From Chloroflexota bacterium (lineage in GTDB: Bacteria > Chloroflexota > Dehalococcoidia > Lucifugimonadales > UBA2962): a DNA stretch of 64,000 nt. Position numbers and translations under genes: made by a program. The stretch spans positions 1,241 to 65,240 of the forward strand of contig QGNM01000003.1 in NCBI GenBank assembly GCA_003228095.2, in the 5' to 3' direction. The notes beneath the pieces are model-generated. The model had not been told where the DNA came from, made no database searches, and saw only the letters and a list, made by a program, of their open reading frames with translations. Shown here one piece after another: positions 55,115-64,000 of the stretch (its first letter is position 1; each line of letters starts with the position of its first letter).

Positions 55115-56701
55115 TTATGGCACTGCGTGCCCGGCTAAAATACCTGTACATGAATCGTCTCTCACCGCAAATTCACCATTCACTATTACATGGGGGATTC
55201 CAACAGGGAATTGTTTGGGGTCATCAAAAGTAGCTGTATCAATTATAGTATCTGGGTTAAATACAACTATATCGGCAAAGTAACCTTCTTTTAATAGGCC
55301 TCTATTTTTTAAACCAAACCTTGATGCTGCGTTATGAGTCATCCTATGTATCATAGTTTCTAAAGTCATAACGTCAGGCAATTGTCTGAGGTATCGTCCT
55401 AAGAAGCGAGGGAATGCTCCATATGCCCGTGGATGAGGTAACCCGCCTAAGGATATTTGATCAGAGCCGAGCATATAATCAGGCCTGGATAAAAAATACA
55501 TTTGATCTTTCATAAGATGTCGCGAAATAGCCGGGCTTTCAGGAGGGATGGATCTAAATCCTACTTGTAGATCCTCTTTGATTAATAAATCACATATAAT
55601 CTGACCTCTTGTCATCCCAGTAGTTGAAGATATATCCGTGATGCTCATTCCTTCAAGGTCTTGGTTGTTTGGCAGATGAGTAAATACGAGCTTATCTAAA
55701 GATCTAGAGTCATAAGTATCGATAAGTTTTGAGACTATTTTCCGTTTTACTGGGTCTTTTAAGCGATCAAGAATTGCTTCAGTTCCGCCATCTTGGGATA
55801 TTGAATCTAAGGTCATAATTGCAAAACTACTACCGACTGGATAAGGATACAATTCAAGTGTTGAATCAACTTCATTTTTGGCTTTGTCGATCGGACCGAT
55901 TTTTTCTTCGGCCGTCATAATCCCAAAATCTTCAGCTGTTGTTCTGAAATGCGAAAAATGTACCTTAACTCCTGATTTGCGACCTATTTCCAATGCCTCT
56001 TCTATGCCCCCACCTTCAAAACCTCTTTCCGTGTTTACGTCACGGAGGTGAGTAACATATAATCCGCCAGCCTCGTCTGCTGCTCCGCATAGCTCTATTA
56101 ATTCTTCAGTATTGCTCCAGCTATTCGGGTAATATGACATACCTGTAGCTAATGCCACAGCTCCTTCTTCAATAGATTCTCTAACGAGCGACTTTGCATT
56201 TTCTAAATCTTTACCTAATAAGGGCACATCATTAAACCCGACTGTCTCAAGACGGATAGCACCGTGCGGAACACAATAGGCAGTATTGATGGCGCATTTT
56301 TTATGATAATTTTTTCTAAAAGCCTTAACGCTACTCATGTCTAAATCTGGCGATGGCATGCCTAATAACCCAGACAGGTATTGACGATAAATTAGGTAGT
56401 TTTTTGAGTTTAGGGGTGCATATGATAGCCCATCTTGTCCGAGAATTTCCGTAGTAATTCCTTGCCTTATACCTGATGCATGCTGAGGATCAGTCAGCAG
56501 AATGCCGTCTGAATGGGCATGAGTATCAATGAATCCTGGTGAGACAACCAAGCCGGTTGCATCAATGATATTAACTCCCTCTGTATTGGATAAATCACCG
56601 ATAGCTTCTATTTTCCCCTGTTTGATTCCTAAGTCAGCCTTGATTCTAGGATTTCCACTACCATCAACAATGGTGCCATTTTTTATTAGTATGTCGAACA
56701 T
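55115..56701 (-). CDS. N-acyl-D-amino-acid deacylase family amidohydrolase
   Basis: PGFIDTHAHSD, QGITTE, THLRD, HPRAYGAFPR and ADIVVF. Confidence 0.88.
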   Translation of the reverse strand: MFDILIKNGTIVDGSGNPRIKADLGIKQGKIEAIGDLSNTEGVNIIDATGLVVSPGFIDTHAHSDGILLTDPQHASGIRQGITTEILGQDGLSYAPLNSKNYLIYRQYLSGLLGMPSPDLDMSSVKAFRKNYHKKCAINTAYCVPHGAIRLETVGFNDVPLLGKDLENAKSLVRESIEEGAVALATGMSYYPNSWSNTEELIELCGAADEAGGLYVTHLRDVNTERGFEGGGIEEALEIGRKSGVKVHFSHFRTTAEDFGIMTAEEKIGPIDKAKNEVDSTLELYPYPVGSSFAIMTLDSISQDGGTEAILDRLKDPVKRKIVSKLIDTYDSRSLDKLVFTHLPNNQDLEGMSITDISSTTGMTRGQIICDLLIKEDLQVGFRSIPPESPAISRHLMKDQMYFLSRPDYMLGSDQISLGGLPHPRAYGAFPRFLGRYLRQLPDVMTLETMIHRMTHNAASRFGLKNRGLLKEGYFADIVVFNPDTIIDTATFDDPKQFPVGIPHVIVNGEFAVRDDSCTGILAGHAVP

Positions 56702-56799
56702 CTATTTCCTTTCCATTTTCACAATCTTACTCCGTCCCATAAAAGTACCTGCACCTCAGGTTAAAGAGTTACTAATCTTACATTGTCTTTATATAATTC

Positions 56800-57837
56800 T
56801 TATAGTGACTTCGCTGGGTTTCTAAGAGGTATTTTGGTTCGAACAGATGGATTGACCAGAGACATAGGATACATCCCCATTAACACTCTTGCTGCCTCTT
56901 CTCCAAGCCTTACCCTTCCATCACGACTTGAATTGTCTGAAGTGCCGGCTGAATGAGGGGAGGCAATTACATTATCCATTAAAAGTAAAGGGTTATTTTT
57001 TGGTGTAGGTTCAACTTCAAAAACATCTAATGCTGCTCCAGCTATGTCCTTGTTAATCAAAGCGGATATTAGATCAGACTCATTGTGAGTAGATCCCCTG
57101 CATGTATTTATAAAATATCCAGTAGACTTCATGCTCTTAAAAAGGGCTGCATTTGCCAAGTTTTGTGTTTCAGAATTTAATGGAACATGCATAGAAACAT
57201 AATCCGATTCTGCACCCAATGATTCCAAAGACCCTAATCTTTCCACTTCGTATTCTTGGGAAACCCAAGGTTCCAAGTATGGGTCATACACTTTTACATT
57301 AATGCCGAAAGCTTTTGCTTTTTTGGAAACATGCCGCCCTATGTTTCCAAATCCCACCAAACCTAAGGTTTGCCCATAAACGGCAGGCATCGGAAAAAGA
57401 TTCTTTACTGTCGTACTAGTCCATTCGCCATGCTTAACTAATTTATCAAGTTGGAGAAGTCGTTTACTGCACGCTAGCAAAAACATTATTGTGTGATTAG
57501 CAACTTCATCAGAACAATATCCGGCGCAATTAGCTACCATGATTCCCATGTCGGTAGCTGCCTGGTCTTCTATATGATTAAATCCATGTCCTAAACTGAT
57601 AATTGCCTGAGCTTTATTCATATGTTGAATAACCGATTTTCCTAGTGGAACCATTTCGTCGATAATTAAGTCTGCGTCCTTTACTGCTTCTATGATTTCG
57701 CCCTGGCTTGACACCATATGAATTTCAAGGTCGTGATCAACTAGGTCGAGGGTTTTTGTTGTTAAAGATAATTCAGCGCTATCAGACCAGAAATCTAAGG
57801 CAGCAGATCTTATATACGCAACTTTAGGTTTTGACAT
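56800..57837 (-). CDS. D-isomer-specific 2-hydroxyacid dehydrogenase (SerA/CtBP-like)
   Basis: GLVGFGNIG, HVPL, INTCRG, ALDVFEVEP and SPHSAG. Confidence 0.9.
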   Translation of the reverse strand: MSKPKVAYIRSAALDFWSDSAELSLTTKTLDLVDHDLEIHMVSSQGEIIEAVKDADLIIDEMVPLGKSVIQHMNKAQAIISLGHGFNHIEDQAATDMGIMVANCAGYCSDEVANHTIMFLLACSKRLLQLDKLVKHGEWTSTTVKNLFPMPAVYGQTLGLVGFGNIGRHVSKKAKAFGINVKVYDPYLEPWVSQEYEVERLGSLESLGAESDYVSMHVPLNSETQNLANAALFKSMKSTGYFINTCRGSTHNESDLISALINKDIAGAALDVFEVEPTPKNNPLLLMDNVIASPHSAGTSDNSSRDGRVRLGEEAARVLMGMYPMSLVNPSVRTKIPLRNPAKSL

Positions 57838-57958: not shown

Positions 57959-58576
57959 ATGTTAAAACTTGAAATTTTCCATGATTACATATGACCGTTT
58001 GCTTATAATGCAGCCGTGTGGCTGGATCAGGTGAGACGAGATGGGATGGAATTAAGCATCACTTGGAAATCGTTTGTATTAGACGCAAATAAAGATGATG
58101 TTGACCATAAGTTGTTTTGGCAATCACCAATTGAAGAGCAAGGACGATCCATGTATGCTCATAAAATTGGTAAAGCAGCATTGCGTCAGGGTCAACAGTT
58201 ATTTGAGCAATTCAATCTACATGTTTATGTATCTCGACATTCGGGCAAACGGATTCGCCTAGATAAATATGATGAACTTTTAGAAGTGTCGGAGCAATGT
58301 GGACTTAGTAAAAAACAACTTTTATTAGACCTTGAAGATCCGGATTTGATCTTAGAGATTAAAGAAGATCATGAAGAAGCAGTTGAGCATTATGGTGTTT
58401 TTGGCACTCCGACATTCGTATTTGAAAACGGACAGTCAGTATTTGTAAAAACGTTAATGCCTCCAGAAAAAGATGCCCTTAAAGCTTTTAATGTTTTTCT
58501 GGCTCTGTTTGGTGACAGAGATTATATTGGTGAGATAAAACGCCCTCAACCACCTTGGCCGAAAAACGTGAATTAG
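57959..58576 (+). CDS. Predicted selenoprotein: DsbA-fold, Rv2466c/mycoredoxin-2-like oxidoreductase (UGA=Sec at 57992-57994)
   Basis: SD GAAAGG then ATG 57959 gives MLKLEIFHDYI-UGA-PFAYNAAVWLDQV, in frame with ORF 58016-58576. cis-Pro loop GVFGTPT; C-terminal EIKRPQPP. Confidence 0.85.
58011..58024 (+). promoter_or_regulatory. Candidate bacterial SECIS apical hairpin
   Basis: CAGCC-GTGT-GGCTG; the G-initial loop begins 21 nt after the in-frame UGA. Confidence 0.6.
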
Positions 58577-58580
58577 CGTA

Positions 58581-59273
58581 GTGATAAAGAACAATATTAA
58601 ATTTGATGAAATAGAAGCTAAACTTGGATTCAACTTTAAAAACCGTGACCTATTAAGAATGGCCTTAACTCATCCCTCTGCTACTAATGAAATGGGCGTT
58701 AAACGCAACGAATCGAATCAGAGAATGGAATTCTTGGGGGATGCAGTCTTAGATTTGATAATGGCTAATTATCTTTATGAAAAACATGAAGAATGGAATG
58801 AAGGAGAATTAACTGTAGAATCGGATAAGTTAGTTAATGGAGCTACTTTGGCTAAAATAGCAGCAGAAATTAATTTAGGCCGATATTTAATTCTTGGAAA
58901 AGGACTGATATCTCAATCTGGGAGAGATAACCCTTCAATACTTGCAGCAGCATTTGAAGCGATAGTGGCTGCAGTTTTCATTGAAGGTGGTTATGAAATG
59001 GCACATAAGATGGTTGTACAGCTGTATAGTAAATATCTTTATGTGCGTGAAGAGGTTGAGAATAGCAAGAAATATTTGCAGGAGTATTTACAAAGCCGAG
59101 GCAGCCCTATACCTGAATATAGAACAGTCGAGTCTACTGGAAAACCGCATGAGCTAACATTTTTTGTTGAGGTAGTGATAAATGAACAAGTCATGGGGGT
59201 TGGTTCCGGATCGAAGAAAATCGATGCGGAGCAAGAAGCGGCTAATCATGCACTCAAAGCCTTAAAATATTAG
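58581..59273 (+). CDS. rnc: Ribonuclease III
   Basis: ALTHPS, NQRMEFLGDAVL, FEA and a C-terminal dsRBD (K..LQEYLQ, G.SKK.AEQ.AA). Confidence 0.92.
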   Translation: MIKNNIKFDEIEAKLGFNFKNRDLLRMALTHPSATNEMGVKRNESNQRMEFLGDAVLDLIMANYLYEKHEEWNEGELTVESDKLVNGATLAKIAAEINLGRYLILGKGLISQSGRDNPSILAAAFEAIVAAVFIEGGYEMAHKMVVQLYSKYLYVREEVENSKKYLQEYLQSRGSPIPEYRTVESTGKPHELTFFVEVVINEQVMGVGSGSKKIDAEQEAANHALKALKY

Positions 59274-59285
59274 TGTTATAAAACA

Positions 59286-60542
59286 CTAATAATCTATTCC
59301 TGGAACAGGAAATTTTGATGTAAGGTTGATTACATCATTACGAATATCTGAAAGCTTAGAATCATTATTCTTGTTTTTTAATGCCCTAAGAATTAGTTCT
59401 CCTACCAAACAAATATCTTCTCTCAAAAAGCCTCTTGTTGTTATTGCAGGGGTGCCAAGTCTAAGCCCGCTAGTTATTCTTGGTTTTTGAGGGTCATATG
59501 GGATGGCATTTCTATTTGCTGTAATACAAACTTTATCCAATGTTTCTTCTGCGTCTTTGCCAGTTATATTTATCGGCCTTAGATCTACCAGTACCATATG
59601 AGTATCTGTTCCCCCAGAAACAATTCTTAAACCTCCGTTTGCTAAAACATTTGCAAGGGTAACTGCATTTTTAATTACTTGCTCAGAGTATTCTGTAAAT
59701 TTAAGAGTCATTGCTTCACTAAAAGCAACAGCTTTCGCTGCAATTGTGTTTTCGAGAGGCCCACCCTGTACGTTTGGAAATACTCCTCTATCCACATTTT
59801 TTGCATGGATTTCTTTAGATAAAATCATGCCGCCCCTTGGGCCTCTCAGGGTTTTGTGAGTAGTTGAAGTCACCACGTCAGCGTAAGGGATAGGAGAAGG
59901 GTGTACTTTCGCTGCCACCAAACCTGAAACATGAGCCATGTCAACCATTAATATTGCATTTACTTCGTCGGCAACATCGCGGAATTGACTATAGTCAAAT
60001 ATTCTTGGATATGCGGTTGCTCCTGCCACGATAATTTTCGGTTTATGTTGTTTTGCTAATGATAAAACCTCGTCAATATTTACCAGTTCAGTTTCCTTAT
60101 CAACTCCATAAGATACGAAATTGTAATGCTTGCCTGAAAAATTGACCTTACTTCCGTGTGTTAAATGACCTCCTTGATCTAGTCTTAGGCCAAGCACAAC
60201 ATCCCCGGGTTTTAACAGTGAGTGATATACGGCCATATTTGCTTGAGCGCCTGAGTGAGGTTGAACGTTGGCATGTTCCGAATCGAACAGAATCTTGGCT
60301 CTTTGTATGGCTAAATTCTCTACTGTATCGACATGTTCACAACCTCCGTAATAACGCTTTCCCGGATACCCTTCGGCGTATTTATTTGTCATAACCGAAC
60401 CTTGAGCCTGCATGACAGCTTTACTTGCATAATTTTCAGATGCTATTAGATTTATATTTTTTCGTTGACGTTCTTCTTCTTTGCCTATAGCAGAAAAAAT
60501 TTCAGGATCAGATGTTTTTAAGATATTCAATTCCCTCTCCAA
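59286..60542 (-). CDS. glyA: Serine hydroxymethyltransferase
   Basis: [29 protein letters not shown] and [12 protein letters not shown]. Confidence 0.97.
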
Positions 60543-60813
60543 TTTAATAAGAAAGTCTTTTTAATTTGTTCATTTGATTTGAAATGATGAAAATACTTGA
60601 GGATGGGTGAAATAAACTAATCAAAACAGAAAAAGAGCAATTATGATTAATATTATCAAGTATAATTCTATGGTTATTTACACTAGTATTCAAGTTGAAT
60701 AATTAAGTTAAGAGCTGGTATAAATTACTTGTGCAATTATTCAATTGCTCTCAATCAATACACAATAATAGCAAAAATTATAAAAACGATATATTTAGAA
60801 ACACTTTTATGGT

Positions 60814-61839
60814 TTGCATATATACGAAAGACTAGGTGAGTCAATTCCACATCTAAATGTTGATGAAGTAAATTTAAATGGAAATTACATTCAGGACCTA
60901 AATGTAAAAGAATGGGACGGCCTGCTTAGTAGATCTGATAGTTCACACATGTTTTTCTCTCATTGGTTTTTAAAATCTTGGTATAAATTACTGGGGCATG
61001 ATCAGGAACTCATAAACTTTGAAATTCGTAAAAATGGTGATTTGGCGGGTGTTGTACCCATCTTAAAAGAGAAATCCTCTTTTATTCTTGGAGGCGATTC
61101 GGAATTATTTGATTATCAACAGCTCATCATTGAAAAGGGGATGGAAAGAGAAGTGATAACCGCTTTTTTTGATTACATATCAGAAAAAGACTGGAAAACG
61201 CTAGAGTTGCCTTCTGTTTCAAATAATTCGCAACAGATAAACATATTGAAGGAAATTGCAAAGGAAAGAAATTATTCAATTGAATCTGAGCAGTCTGCGG
61301 TATCCCCAATATTAGAACTGCCTGATTCATGGGATCTCTATGTCTCATCATTAAGAAAAAAACACAGACATGAATTAAGACGCAAAATTCGGCGTATTGA
61401 AAGCATGGGTCAAGTTCAAAATATATCTGTAACCAAACCATCGGATACTGATATAGATGATTTTTTTAATTTGATGCGCCTGACAAGTGATGCTAAATCA
61501 GCATTCTTAACAAAAAATATTGAAGGTTTTTTTAGATTGTTAATTCAAAATGCATGTGAACGTAATCATTTGAACTTGTCATTTTTAGAGTTTAATTCAA
61601 AAAGAGTTGCAGGGTGCTTGGTTTTCGATTATCAAAATGATTTTATGCTTTACAATAGCGGTTACGATGCTTCGAATCGTGAGCTTAGCGCTGGCCTTAT
61701 TAACAAAGCCTATACAATAAAACAAGCAATTGAACTTGGCAGATCAAGATTTAACTTCCTGAAGGGTTCCGAGCGCTACAAATATGAATTGGGTGGTGTT
61801 GATGAACCAATTCATAACATTTTGATAATTAGAAATTAG
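60814..61839 (+). CDS. FemAB-like / CelD-BcsL-type double-GNAT protein
   Basis: W..LL......F....L..W, DY, LP.SWD.Y..SL.KK.R.ELRRK.RR, YNSGYD, LSAG and FNFLKG.E.YK. Start codon uncertain. Confidence 0.8.
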   Translation: MHIYERLGESIPHLNVDEVNLNGNYIQDLNVKEWDGLLSRSDSSHMFFSHWFLKSWYKLLGHDQELINFEIRKNGDLAGVVPILKEKSSFILGGDSELFDYQQLIIEKGMEREVITAFFDYISEKDWKTLELPSVSNNSQQINILKEIAKERNYSIESEQSAVSPILELPDSWDLYVSSLRKKHRHELRRKIRRIESMGQVQNISVTKPSDTDIDDFFNLMRLTSDAKSAFLTKNIEGFFRLLIQNACERNHLNLSFLEFNSKRVAGCLVFDYQNDFMLYNSGYDASNRELSAGLINKAYTIKQAIELGRSRFNFLKGSERYKYELGGVDEPIHNILIIRN

Positions 61840-61908
61840 AATTACGCTCAATAATAGATTTAAAAGTTGATCTCAACGTGATTAATATTTGGAAAAGAGG
61901 ACTCTTGT

Positions 61909-63156
61909 TTGAAATATAGAGTAGCGTTTCTTAGTTTGCATGGGTGTCCGGTGGCGCGTTTAGGTGAGAAAGACACTGGTGGCATGAATGTATATCTAAA
62001 AGAAACGGCAAAACACCTTGGAAAGTTAGGTATAAAGACTGACGTCTATACCCGTGTTCATGATCTTAATGATGAAGAAATTATTTCATTAGGAATTAAC
62101 GCTAGGGTAATTCATATAAAAGCAGGCGAACTCAGCCATACAAAGGAAGATTTATATCATACTGGGCCGGAATTTGTGGGAAACATTTTACGTTTTCAAA
62201 AAAGAGAAAACATTGAATATGATTTAGTTCACGCTCACTATTGGTTATCTGGGTATCCTGGGATTGAATTATCCAAATTGTGGGCTTCTCCTCTTGTGTC
62301 AACTTTTCATACGTTAGCTAAATTAAAATTGAAAGCAAAAGTAGGGGAAAAAGAATCTGAGCACAGGATTTCTAGTGAGAGCGAAACAATTCTCAAATCT
62401 CACGGAATTGTTGTTTCGACTGAATCCGAAGTTAGCGATATAAAAGAACTATATTTTAAGGTTAATGAAAATTCCACTAACTTTAAAATCAGGGTTATAT
62501 CTCCTGGAGTAGATCTTGACGTCTTTAAACCTGGAGACCGTTCGGCAGCAAGAAATAAGTTGGGATTAACGAAAGCAAAAATGGTTTTGTATGCCGGTAG
62601 GTTAGAGCCGCTGAAAGGTATAGATATAGCTATAGAAGCGGTTTCAAAGCTTGATACTCAGGAGATAGTGAATTTGACAGTTGTTGGAGGAGATTCAACA
62701 TCTGAAGATATTGTCCTTGAATTAAAGAGCCTAGCAGGGTCTTTGGGAATTTCTGAAAGAGTTAAATTCATTGGATCAATTAGTCAATCAGAGTTAGCTG
62801 ATTATTACAGAGCAGCTGATGTTTTGATATTCCCTTCATATTATGAAAGTTTTGGATTAGTAGCACTTGAGGCCATGGCGTCTGGAATCCCAGTAGTTGC
62901 GTCACGAGTTGGTGGTTTAATGGATCTAATAAAGAATGGCGAAGCCGGTTATTTAGTTCCGTTTAGGTGTGCTGAGTCATTTGCTGAGAAGCTTGAAGTA
63001 ATATTGGCAAATCCTTCATTACAAGAAGCTATGGGAGAATCAGCAAACGCAATTGCAATGAAGTGTGGATGGGAAGATGTGGCTAAAAATCTAGCTAAAT
63101 TTTATATGTCTCTGTCTAGTGAATTTAGTTTGAAGTTAAAAAAGTCATCAAAATAG
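61909..63156 (+). CDS. mshA: GT4 glycosyltransferase, MshA-like (D-inositol-3-phosphate glycosyltransferase)
   Basis: SLHGCP.A.LG.KDTGGMNVY, HAHYWLSG, TFHTLAK.K, PGVD, GRLEPLKG and ESFGLVALEA. Confidence 0.75.
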   Translation: MKYRVAFLSLHGCPVARLGEKDTGGMNVYLKETAKHLGKLGIKTDVYTRVHDLNDEEIISLGINARVIHIKAGELSHTKEDLYHTGPEFVGNILRFQKRENIEYDLVHAHYWLSGYPGIELSKLWASPLVSTFHTLAKLKLKAKVGEKESEHRISSESETILKSHGIVVSTESEVSDIKELYFKVNENSTNFKIRVISPGVDLDVFKPGDRSAARNKLGLTKAKMVLYAGRLEPLKGIDIAIEAVSKLDTQEIVNLTVVGGDSTSEDIVLELKSLAGSLGISERVKFIGSISQSELADYYRAADVLIFPSYYESFGLVALEAMASGIPVVASRVGGLMDLIKNGEAGYLVPFRCAESFAEKLEVILANPSLQEAMGESANAIAMKCGWEDVAKNLAKFYMSLSSEFSLKLKKSSK

Positions 63157-63164
63157 TTTAACTT

Positions 63165-63998
63165 TTAATTCGCTAAATTAAGTTCGTACCAAATGGTTTC
63201 TTCCAGTAATTCAAAACCTAATGACAGATATAATTCCCTAGCTGGCATGTTGTTTGCGTCTACTTCTAGAGTTACATTCGGTATTTTTAAAGAATTCAAG
63301 TAATTGATTCCTGATTGAACAATATAACGCCCCAAGCCTAAACCACGCAATTCAGGATGAATTCCAGTCATTCCGATATATCCATGAGTAGATTTATGCT
63401 TTTTATGTCGATGTGTCCAATTGTAACCCACCATTTTGTTGTTTATATTTTGCAATATAAGGATGCCACCGCTTTCCCAGTCATTCAACCTGGCTTTTGA
63501 ACTAATTTGTTCAACTGTATTTGGGCTGAATCCCCAGCTGTCCATAAATGATATGTTTTGTAATTCTGTAAGAGCTTCTTCATCCTGATCTATATTGAAA
63601 AACCTTAGCTGATATCCGCTTGGAAGCGTATTTTGATGAACCCCATTGTTTTTCTTGGTCAGTTTCCAATACCGCCTAACAGCTGCAAACCCAGCTTGTT
63701 CTAACAGAAACCTCCCAGCATCATTATCAACGGCTACTTGGATATGTAATACTTGAGCATTCAAGTGGCTCGAACGGTCAATCGCTGTCTGTAATAGCTG
63801 TCTGCCGATACCAATTTTTCGGTATTGCGGATTTACAAATAAATTTGAGACGACTCGATGGATTTTAGCTTCATACGCGACACGTAAAACTCCAACAGTA
63901 ATATTATCAATCTCAGCCATAAAGCAATTGTTTTCCGGATCAATATCAGGTTGACTTAAAAATAATTCCTTAGAATTTTCATTGATGTATAGATCGTT
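63165..63998 (-). CDS. Tandem-GNAT acetyltransferase, MshD (mycothiol synthase)-like; 5' end outside window
   Basis: Two GNAT domains (VNPQYRKIGIG; GIHPELRGLGLGR); GYNWTH; LEVDANN.PA..LY..LGF. Frame is open to the window edge. Confidence 0.7.
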   Translation of the reverse strand, partial: NDLYINENSKELFLSQPDIDPENNCFMAEIDNITVGVLRVAYEAKIHRVVSNLFVNPQYRKIGIGRQLLQTAIDRSSHLNAQVLHIQVAVDNDAGRFLLEQAGFAAVRRYWKLTKKNNGVHQNTLPSGYQLRFFNIDQDEEALTELQNISFMDSWGFSPNTVEQISSKARLNDWESGGILILQNINNKMVGYNWTHRHKKHKSTHGYIGMTGIHPELRGLGLGRYIVQSGINYLNSLKIPNVTLEVDANNMPARELYLSLGFELLEETIWYELNLAN

Positions 63999-64000
63999 AT

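Follow-up and report, generated by a model that had tools for sequence, protein, structure and literature searches.

We analyzed a 64,000-nucleotide stretch of DNA from a Chloroflexota bacterium (G000:C3:1241-65240, as genome, contig and positions; hereafter the window) and identified, in its last 6 kb and the sequence that follows, a conserved gene cluster resembling the genes of the mycothiol pathway. Mycothiol is regarded as a hallmark of Actinobacteria. The cluster codes for an MshA-like glycosyltransferase of family 4 (GT4), an MshD-like tandem GNAT, a PIG-L deacetylase, a PHP-type phosphatase and a FemX-like double-GNAT protein that likely stands in for the cysteine ligase MshC, a role which an earlier note on this DNA had overlooked. 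Judging from the gene content, we consider it about an even chance that the organism makes mycothiol or a closely related compound and that a tRNA-dependent ligase takes the place of MshC. The product would most likely be an N-acyl-aminoacyl-glucosaminyl-inositol compound, either mycothiol or a near analogue of it. The earlier note had proposed that mycothiol or an analogue is made and that a selenoprotein encoded nearby is its partner. The proposal on the thiol was strengthened by the conserved mycothiol-like gene set, an Ino1 homolog and a mycothiol-type dehydrogenase scoring above its model cut-off, while the proposal on the selenium partner was not borne out.

The region analyzed comprised positions 57959-64000 of the window and a read-on beyond base 64000. 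The assembly from which the window comes is 1.36 Mb in size and 77.5% complete. The organism had been taken for a probable member of SAR202 and, in agreement with this, the database relatives of the FemX-like GNAT were metagenome-assembled genomes (MAGs) named 'Dehalococcoidia bacterium' or 'SAR202 cluster bacterium'. For comparison we used an order-level sample of 41 genomes (window genome included), 20 neighbourhoods of ~20 kb from relatives, and 80 species-representative loci picked via the FemX-like (PF13480) gene. We also used a class sample of 126 genomes that were each at least 85% complete and a phylum sample of 401 Chloroflexota genomes with a completeness of 80% or more, six unpublished genomes being counted in. 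The genes that the earlier note had named within ~6 kb, split by rnc and glyA, were all found in place. The cluster itself consists of the following genes, where L006 denotes the locus that was read past the window end:

60814-61839, plus strand, FemX-like double-GNAT protein (PF13480, 81.1 bits)
61909-63156, plus strand, MshA-like GT4 of 415 aa (TIGR03449, 355.7 bits, model positions 1-403 of 406)
63165 to 85 nt past the window end (L006 6406-7326), minus strand, MshD-like tandem GNAT of 306 aa (TIGR03448)
L006 7490-8182, plus strand, PIG-L deacetylase of 230 aa (Pfam PIG-L, 113.5 bits)
L006 8185-8910, plus strand, PHP or CpsB/CapC-like phosphatase of 241 aa (182.4 bits), 2 nt after the PIG-L gene

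The cluster runs in the order FemX-like, GT4, MshD-like (on the opposite strand), PIG-L and PHP. The FemX-like and GT4 genes were adjacent in 20/20 neighbourhoods, with the MshD-like gene within a few kb in 17/20, the PHP gene in 12/20 and the PIG-L gene in 10/20. Among the species-representative loci, FemX-like and GT4 were adjacent on the same strand in 73 of 80, and several of the other seven ended right after the gene; PIG-L was found within 6 kb in 44 of these loci, MshD-like in 34 and PHP in 19. A same-strand FemX-like/GT4/PIG-L operon was also present in small complete genomes from another order of the class. The grouping of FemX-like, GT4, MshD-like and PIG-L genes is thus far beyond chance, being kept across the order and further. 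The earlier note had cautioned that the linkage might be coincidental. For these four genes, which stay together across relatives, the caution did not apply; it did apply to the selenoprotein gene, whose position near the cluster was kept only in close relatives.

The GT4 was closest to MshA both among NCBIfam models and among solved structures. The next NCBIfam models were glgA_Coryne (134.5 bits), BshA (108.4 bits) and the sucrose-phosphate synthase (SPS) domain (105.7 bits). Its best match in the PDB was Corynebacterium glutamicum MshA (3c48, 260.5 bits), followed by Thermosynechococcus elongatus SPS (6kih, 202 bits). The earlier note had left room for a grouping with SPS instead of MshA, and by these scores the GT4 is nearer to MshA. 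By alignment to 3c4q, the GT4 keeps all of the residues that we take to bind inositol phosphate in the C. glutamicum enzyme (N25, K78, Y110, H133, T134 and R154), and SPS 6kih keeps or conservatively replaces them. Because these ligands are common to MshA and SPS, they suggest a phosphorylated acceptor, which fits with the phosphatase gene in the cluster. A GT4 ortholog was detected in 40/41 genomes of the order, and a match to the MshA model at E<=1e-60 was detected in 276/401 Chloroflexota genomes. Among the control genomes at this threshold C. glutamicum alone matched the model, and Synechococcus did not.

The MshD-like protein has two GNAT domains and aligned with positions 36-294 of the 294 in TIGR03448 at 107.3-107.8 bits. 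Its PDB matches were a Sphaerobacter GNAT (3tt2, 40 bits) and Mycobacterium tuberculosis MshD (2c27, 39.3 bits). The PIG-L gene begins 249 nt past base 64000, 163 nt from the MshD-like gene and divergent from it. The best NCBIfam model for its product was BshB1 (108.4 bits), and the product resembled the diacetylchitobiose deacetylase of archaea (116 bits) and BshB more closely than MshB (24 bits). In NCBIfam, each of the genome's three PIG-L paralogs matched only thiol-pathway deacetylases (BshB1, BshB2, Mca and MshB), all below the cut-offs. An inositol-phosphate synthase is also encoded in the genome, on contig C17 (G000:C17:17339-18394). This protein matched TIGR03450 over the full length at 529.7 bits and is of the short actinobacterial type. 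A genome search with PF07994 had returned Ino1 as absent, which was a false negative in view of the TIGR03450 match. Ino1 was strong in 33/41 genomes of the order, and six more had a weak match to an ORF (open reading frame) of 509-571 aa; the one checked was an inositol-phosphate synthase of the long form (PF07994, 313.8 bits). The earlier note had reported that mshB and ino1 are not in the window. This is literally true, but a PIG-L gene lies just past the window end and Ino1 lies on another contig.

No PDB sequence matched the FemX-like protein at E<=1, and the Pfam families FemAB (PF02388, 17.2 bits) and FemAB_like (PF04339, 17.8 bits) stayed below their thresholds of 24 and 27. Its AlphaFold2 model had a mean predicted local distance difference test score (pLDDT) of 90.8. 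Foldseek ranks 1-9 for this model were all FemX and Sbb17/Sba18, with E-values of 1e-13 to 4.5e-11 and template-modelling (TM) scores of 0.59-0.72. Weissella FemX (1xf8) topped the list (E 1e-13, TM 0.65-0.68). It was followed by Sbb17/Sba18, which are aminoacyl-tRNA-dependent peptide synthases with bound streptothrisamine, and then by MprF and FemA. An invariant basic helix, KKxRHELRRKxRR, opens domain 2. The sections of PMC12945691 that deal with these enzymes describe a basic tRNA-binding helix in FemX domain 2 and report that Orf11 glycylates streptothrisamine, an amino sugar, from Gly-tRNA. Taken together, the model suggests that the FemX-like protein is probably an aminoacyl-tRNA-dependent transferase. 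The listed start of its gene, a TTG at 60814, is probably too far upstream by ~30 codons (60814-60900), since two orthologous loci (L053 and L054) have stops in the N-terminal extension and conservation begins at about residue 33. Paralogs in one further family, f80 (for example G123:C16:4347-5189 and G253:C22:4016-4840), aligned with the FemX-like profile at positions ~46-311 alone, with E-values of 1e-41 to 1e-53, and lay inside ORFs of up to 1253 aa in genomes that mostly lack GT4; they probably represent a different, fused Fem-like enzyme.

The window genome has a single cysteinyl-tRNA synthetase (CysRS)-like gene, which scored 315.2 bits on the MshC model (TIGR03447, cut-off 485.1), and no protein exceeded this cut-off in the 41 genomes of the order or the 401 of the phylum. 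Complete genomes of the window's family likewise have a single CysRS-like gene each. The earlier note had observed that mshC is not in the window, and this extends to the genome as a whole, in which no MshC paralog was found. Because the FemX-like gene is always next to the GT4 and MshC was not found, the FemX-like protein is the obvious candidate for the ligase. FemX-like profile matches occurred in 153/401 phylum genomes at E<=1e-20 and in 114/401 at E<=1e-60. Many of the FemX-like-negative genomes had a second, truncated CysRS beside a CysS of 465-472 aa. Its length in ten ORFs that were read was 388-452 aa, for the most part 388-407. It aligned with the MshC model over the full length (374-410 bits) and covered only the first ~375-400 of the 466 cysS positions, so that the anticodon-binding part is missing. 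To count these proteins we defined an MshC-like class by a profile of nine truncated paralogs at E<=1e-155, an arbitrary threshold for which counts were also made at 1e-165 and 1e-170. An E-value threshold on TIGR03447 and then the nine-paralog profile were tried as classifiers, and neither cleanly split MshC-like proteins from CysS.

The FemX-like and MshC-like genes alternated across the phylum. Among the 276 GT4-positive genomes, 96 had only the FemX-like gene, 124 only the MshC-like gene, 10 both and 46 neither. Among the 125 GT4-negative genomes the respective numbers were 8, 20, 0 and 97. Fisher's odds ratio in the GT4-positive genomes was 0.04, a value that ignores phylogeny and treats relatives as independent, which they are not. 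Switches were also seen within families, with four FemX-like and five MshC-like genomes in one (f63) and one and four, respectively, in another (f71). Such an alternation would be expected if one cysteine ligase had replaced another, non-orthologous one, and the alternation with a CysRS paralog suggests that the amino acid is cysteine. In 10 MshC-like loci (of 15 CysRS-family loci), no cluster gene was found within 1.5 kb of the MshC-like gene. Two solutions to amino acid ligation, a synthetase paralog acting as the ligase or an aminoacyl-tRNA with a Fem/MprF-type ligase, are set out in a passage of PMC2922099, which does not tie the latter solution to mycothiol. Separately, 15 genomes of the order (G017, G018, G021, G023-G025, G027-G030, G034-G036, G038 and G040) had a further CysRS-like match, which scored 187-237 bits with the MshC model. 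Fourteen of these matches lay in ORFs of 729-972 aa and that of G023 in an ORF of 311 aa at the end of a contig, and the protein looks like a fusion.

A candidate user of the thiol is encoded elsewhere in the genome. Contig C12 carries an S-(hydroxymethyl)mycothiol dehydrogenase that scored 655.7 bits on TIGR03451 against a cut-off of 512.9; the models for NDMA-dependent alcohol dehydrogenase and the glutathione-dependent enzyme gave 274 and 230 bits. Homologs with 76-96% identity bear the same name in Dehalococcoidia and Chloroflexi MAGs, and because of these close homologs we do not regard the gene as a contaminant. It is flanked (L186 3018-4004 and 3-1445, both on the minus strand) by two tandem SDR genes and a gene for an F420-dependent LLM-class oxidoreductase, the latter above the cut-off of TIGR03619 at 227.8 bits. 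F420, too, is a cofactor characteristic of Actinobacteria.

We infer the following route from gene content, folds and distributions, including each of its chemical steps. Ino1 would provide inositol phosphate, to which the MshA-like GT4 would add N-acetylglucosamine (GlcNAc) from UDP-GlcNAc. The phosphate would be removed by the PHP phosphatase encoded beside the deacetylase (the 'MshA2' step), and the PIG-L enzyme would then take off the acetyl group. The FemX-like protein would move an amino acid, probably cysteine from Cys-tRNA, to the free amine of the glucosamine. In Actinobacteria this task falls to the CysRS paralog MshC, and the same apparently holds for other Chloroflexota. Finally the MshD-like tandem GNAT would acylate the amino acid, and the thiol so formed would serve enzymes like the S-(hydroxymethyl)mycothiol dehydrogenase.

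The selenoprotein that had been proposed as the partner of this thiol is encoded at the start of the region analyzed, with the following features up to the cluster:

57959-58576, plus strand, DsbA-like selenoprotein of 205 aa (Pfam DSBA, PF01323, 56.4 bits)
57995-58044, plus strand, hairpin resembling a selenocysteine insertion sequence (SECIS) directly 3' of the UGA, with apical stem GCAGCC/GGCUG and loop GUGU
58581-59273, plus strand, rnc (RNase III), with a gap of 4 nt to the DsbA-like gene
59286-60542, minus strand, glyA, between rnc and the FemX-like GNAT gene

The DsbA-like gene encodes a genuine selenoprotein, as the earlier note had claimed, on the grounds of the alignment of its TGA with cysteine, the conserved hairpin and the selenocysteine (Sec) machinery of the genome. 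Sec is codon 12 (in-frame TGA at 57992-57994; motif HDYI-U-PFAY), and in homologs of full length this position corresponds to the cysteine of C-P-[FYW]-V. All homologs share a C-terminal GE[IL]KRPQPPWPKG; 1083 were collected, most of the database entries being 185-191 aa long and cut by gene callers at the TGA. The loop of the hairpin sits ~22 nt after the UGA, and the minimum free energy was -21.2 kcal/mol (z -2.26), with 3/200 shuffles equally good. In the relatives' loci, the TGA was at the same codon in 11/11 orthologs. The 21-nt stretch after it, AATGCAGCCGTGTGGCTGGAT, was identical in 9/11, synonymous positions too, and this invariance holds across genomes of widely differing G+C content; the other two (L056 and L057) deviated by 2-3 bases close to the 3' end. 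The genome encodes SelB (326.6 bits), SelA (521.8 bits) and SelD (353.1 bits), each above its cut-off, and a tRNA-SeC. The selD gene, which lies outside the window (G000:C10:494-1414, minus strand), has an in-frame TGA of its own, and contig C10 also carries selA and tRNA-SeC. A 'DsbA-like protein form 2' with the motif DxxUP is among the selenoproteins given in a list in the review PMC13188914. The protein of the window is a predicted cytoplasmic mono-selenol oxidoreductase and a member of this known selenoprotein family.

The specific link between the selenoprotein and the cluster was not supported. According to the earlier note, the mycothiol or analogue cluster would have the adjacent Sec-containing, Rv2466c-like protein as its dedicated 'seleno-mycoredoxin' partner. 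Several points speak for such a pairing. As monothiol oxidoreductases in general do, a mono-selenol enzyme would require an external thiol to resolve its mixed selenenyl-sulfide, the DsbA-like fold of the protein also matches Rv2466c, no more than 4 kb separate the DsbA-like gene from the cluster in the window and in 11/20 neighbourhoods, and GT4 was also present in 19 of the 22 class genomes in which the DsbA-like gene was strongly present (17 with TGA). This last figure, however, equals the base rate, as GT4 was found in 99/126 class genomes (79%), and 80 of these 99 had no DsbA-like gene. Thus the selenoprotein does not co-occur with the GT4 as a dedicated partner would, and among the species-representative loci its gene was within 6 kb of the cluster in just 8/80. 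In complete genomes the DsbA-like gene and GT4 were ~100-1100 kb apart. The constant neighbour was rnc, adjacent in 11/11 relatives' loci that have the DsbA-like gene; we take the DsbA-like gene to be co-transcribed with rnc, and its placement near the cluster to be the local gene order of one family. The likeness to Rv2466c was limited to the general DsbA-like fold. By comparison of folds with the AlphaFold model (pLDDT 89.6), Rv2466c (4zil) was at rank 16 with a TM score of 0.71, while the top match was the mono-Cys protein DR2335 of Deinococcus radiodurans (7dk9, TM 0.79). A phmmer search against all PDB chains gave seven sequences at E<=1, of which 7dk9 was the best (38 bits) and among which Rv2466c was not found. 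The motif in the family is U-P-F-A or C-P-x-V and never CxxC, which we take to be the active site of Rv2466c. Since the DsbA-like gene rides with rnc and its co-occurrence with GT4 is at the base rate, we find the selenium link to the cluster unsupported and regard the dedicated partnership as quite unlikely.

The mycothiol reading also has to be weighed against a cluster that makes a non-thiol aminoacyl-glucosaminyl conjugate, such as an osmolyte (Gly-, Ala- or Ser-GlcN-inositol) or a precursor from which a glycoconjugate of the cell envelope is made, in which case the likeness to mycothiol synthesis would reflect shared chemistry. Several findings favour such a product or otherwise weigh against mycothiol. 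None of the four biosynthetic proteins reached its NCBIfam equivalog cut-off: the GT4 was below 462.5 bits, the MshD-like protein below 163.1, Ino1 below 638, and the PIG-L deacetylase scored 40.1 bits on MshB (TIGR03445) against 224.35. Among the 401 Chloroflexota genomes none reached the MshA cut-off, the top score being 421 bits. The phosphate ligands of the GT4 appear to mark only a phosphorylated acceptor, not inositol specifically, and the best family for the PHP protein was the capsule tyrosine phosphatase (CpsB/CapC) family. A membrane-protein gene lies between the GT4 and MshD-like genes in many relatives. PF13480 relatives of the FemX-like protein carry GNAT or CelD-like annotation only, and the amino acid that it uses cannot be read from the sequence. 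FemX-type enzymes take Gly, Ala, Ser and Leu, according to the section of PMC12945691 on their substrates. The alternation with the CysRS paralog was imperfect, given the genomes with both genes or neither; MshC-like scores were continuous, and in one family without GT4 (f58) a protein of this kind is the sole CysRS. Mycoredoxin (TIGR02200) and MDMPI_N (PF11716)/DinB proteins were not found in the 77.5%-complete window genome. The mycothione reductase model had a single match in this genome, which was a dihydrolipoyl (lipoamide) dehydrogenase at 552.5 bits; the earlier note had found no mtr in the window, and no mycothione reductase was found in the genome either. Five other genomes, three of them GT4-positive, were tested for the mycothiol-type formaldehyde dehydrogenase, and none had it. 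Against a non-thiol product, the near-exclusive alternation with the CysRS paralog points to cysteine, the same genome encodes the mycothiol-type formaldehyde dehydrogenase at a score above the cut-off, and no membrane-anchored architecture was seen in the GT4 or the other ORFs read. On balance we find the non-thiol conjugate rather improbable. A further alternative is that the GT4 is an SPS-like or other sugar-phosphate glycosyltransferase that makes a compatible solute with the phosphatase, the GNATs and the deacetylase being unrelated neighbours. SPS works together with a dedicated phosphatase, T. elongatus SPS was the second-best solved relative of the GT4, and the phosphate-binding residues are common to SPS. 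The MshA model nevertheless outscored the SPS model by a wide margin, the same-strand FemX-like/GT4/PIG-L operon kept across orders calls for an N-acetylated sugar, and the Synechococcus control, which we presume to hold SPS, gave no match at the MshA threshold. We therefore consider this alternative very unlikely, and mycothiol or a close analogue stays our preferred product.

The distribution of the cluster suggests a broader picture, which we offer tentatively and hold to be possible but short of probable. Much of Chloroflexota (SAR202, Dehalococcoides-type and Chloroflexus-type organisms) may make mycothiol or a sister thiol, with the cysteine step in two interchangeable forms, a tRNA-independent MshC-like one and a FemX-like one using Cys-tRNA, and with PHP providing an 'MshA2'-type step. 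This would also explain the Chloroflexus thiol, as the commentary PMC6336425 mentions, in a passage on the subject, novel unidentified thiols detected in Chloroflexus aurantiacus. We found no paper on mycothiol synthesis in Chloroflexi in the full texts searched, subscription journals and supplements being outside the scope, and one SAR202 paper mentions merely a 'mycothiol maleylpyruvate isomerase' annotation. If true, the proposal would revise the assumed redox buffer of the abundant ocean SAR202 and of organohalide-respiring Dehalococcoidia, and would give a concrete candidate for the thiol of that commentary passage. It would further be the first case of a FemX-type tRNA-dependent enzyme and a synthetase paralog swapping in one cofactor pathway, a swap that follows the two-solution logic of the passage in PMC2922099.

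Two other sets of genes were noted around the cluster. Upstream of the selenoprotein gene lies the following pair:

55115-57837, minus strand, D-2-hydroxyacid dehydrogenase (PF02826, 184 bits) and amidohydrolase (PRK09061-like, 165 bits)

Only in the window's family does the D-2-hydroxyacid dehydrogenase gene stay beside that of the DsbA-like protein. In many relatives a gene for a predicted membrane protein of 222-244 aa, presumably DUF502-like, is found between the GT4 and MshD-like genes, with a conserved VPTVPNPTSGNLAFV...FSGGI; the gene with VPTVPNPTSGNLAFV was not found in the window's genus. It was located at:

L055 10677-11345, plus strand, membrane protein
L056 10626-11327, membrane protein
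L058 10615-11328, membrane protein
L061 8584-9318, membrane protein
L070 10620-11315, membrane protein
L057 10621-11307, membrane protein

Among known systems, the selenoprotein agrees with DsbA-like selenoprotein form 2, as described in the list of PMC13188914, in its PF01323 fold and its motif D-Y-I-U-P (DxxUP), and its best solved relative is the mono-Cys protein DR2335. Unlike in these comparisons, the gene of the window is always beside rnc in its relatives. With Rv2466c (Mrx2) of M. tuberculosis it shares the cytoplasmic DsbA-like fold, but it differs in having U-P-F-A for CxxC and in giving no sequence match. For the FemX-like protein, Weissella FemX and Orf11/Sbb17/Sba18 are the top structural matches and have the double-GNAT fold in common with it. 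Its basic helix occupies the position of the tRNA-binding helix stated for FemX in the section of PMC12945691 on that domain, and the aminoacylation of an amino-sugar amine by Orf11/Sbb17, described in the same source and in PDB titles, is the parallel that we predict for the enzyme of the window. Identity to FemX/Sbb17 is 11-14%, with the Pfam FemAB score below threshold, and these enzymes act in cell wall and antibiotic synthesis, whereas the role proposed here is in a thiol pathway of core metabolism.

The bacillithiol pathway (BshA, BshB and BshC) is alike in combining a GT4, a PIG-L/LmbE deacetylase and the addition of cysteine, and its BshB1 is the best model for the deacetylase of the cluster. 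The GT4 of the window nevertheless scored far lower with BshA than with MshA (108 and 356 bits), and the acceptor of BshA is malate, whereas the phosphate-binding residues of the GT4 suit a phosphorylated acceptor. The actinobacterial mycothiol pathway differs in having MshC, in place of which the window has the PF13480 FemX-like gene beside the GT4, and in its deacetylase MshB, since that of the window is nearer to diacetylchitobiose deacetylase and BshB. The msh genes are scattered in Actinobacteria, whereas those of the window are clustered and belong to the phylum Chloroflexota. The likeness to the actinobacterial pathway lies in a GT4 that is closest to MshA, a tandem GNAT that matches the whole MshD model, a PIG-L deacetylase, a short Ino1 and a mycothiol-type formaldehyde dehydrogenase that scores above its cut-off.

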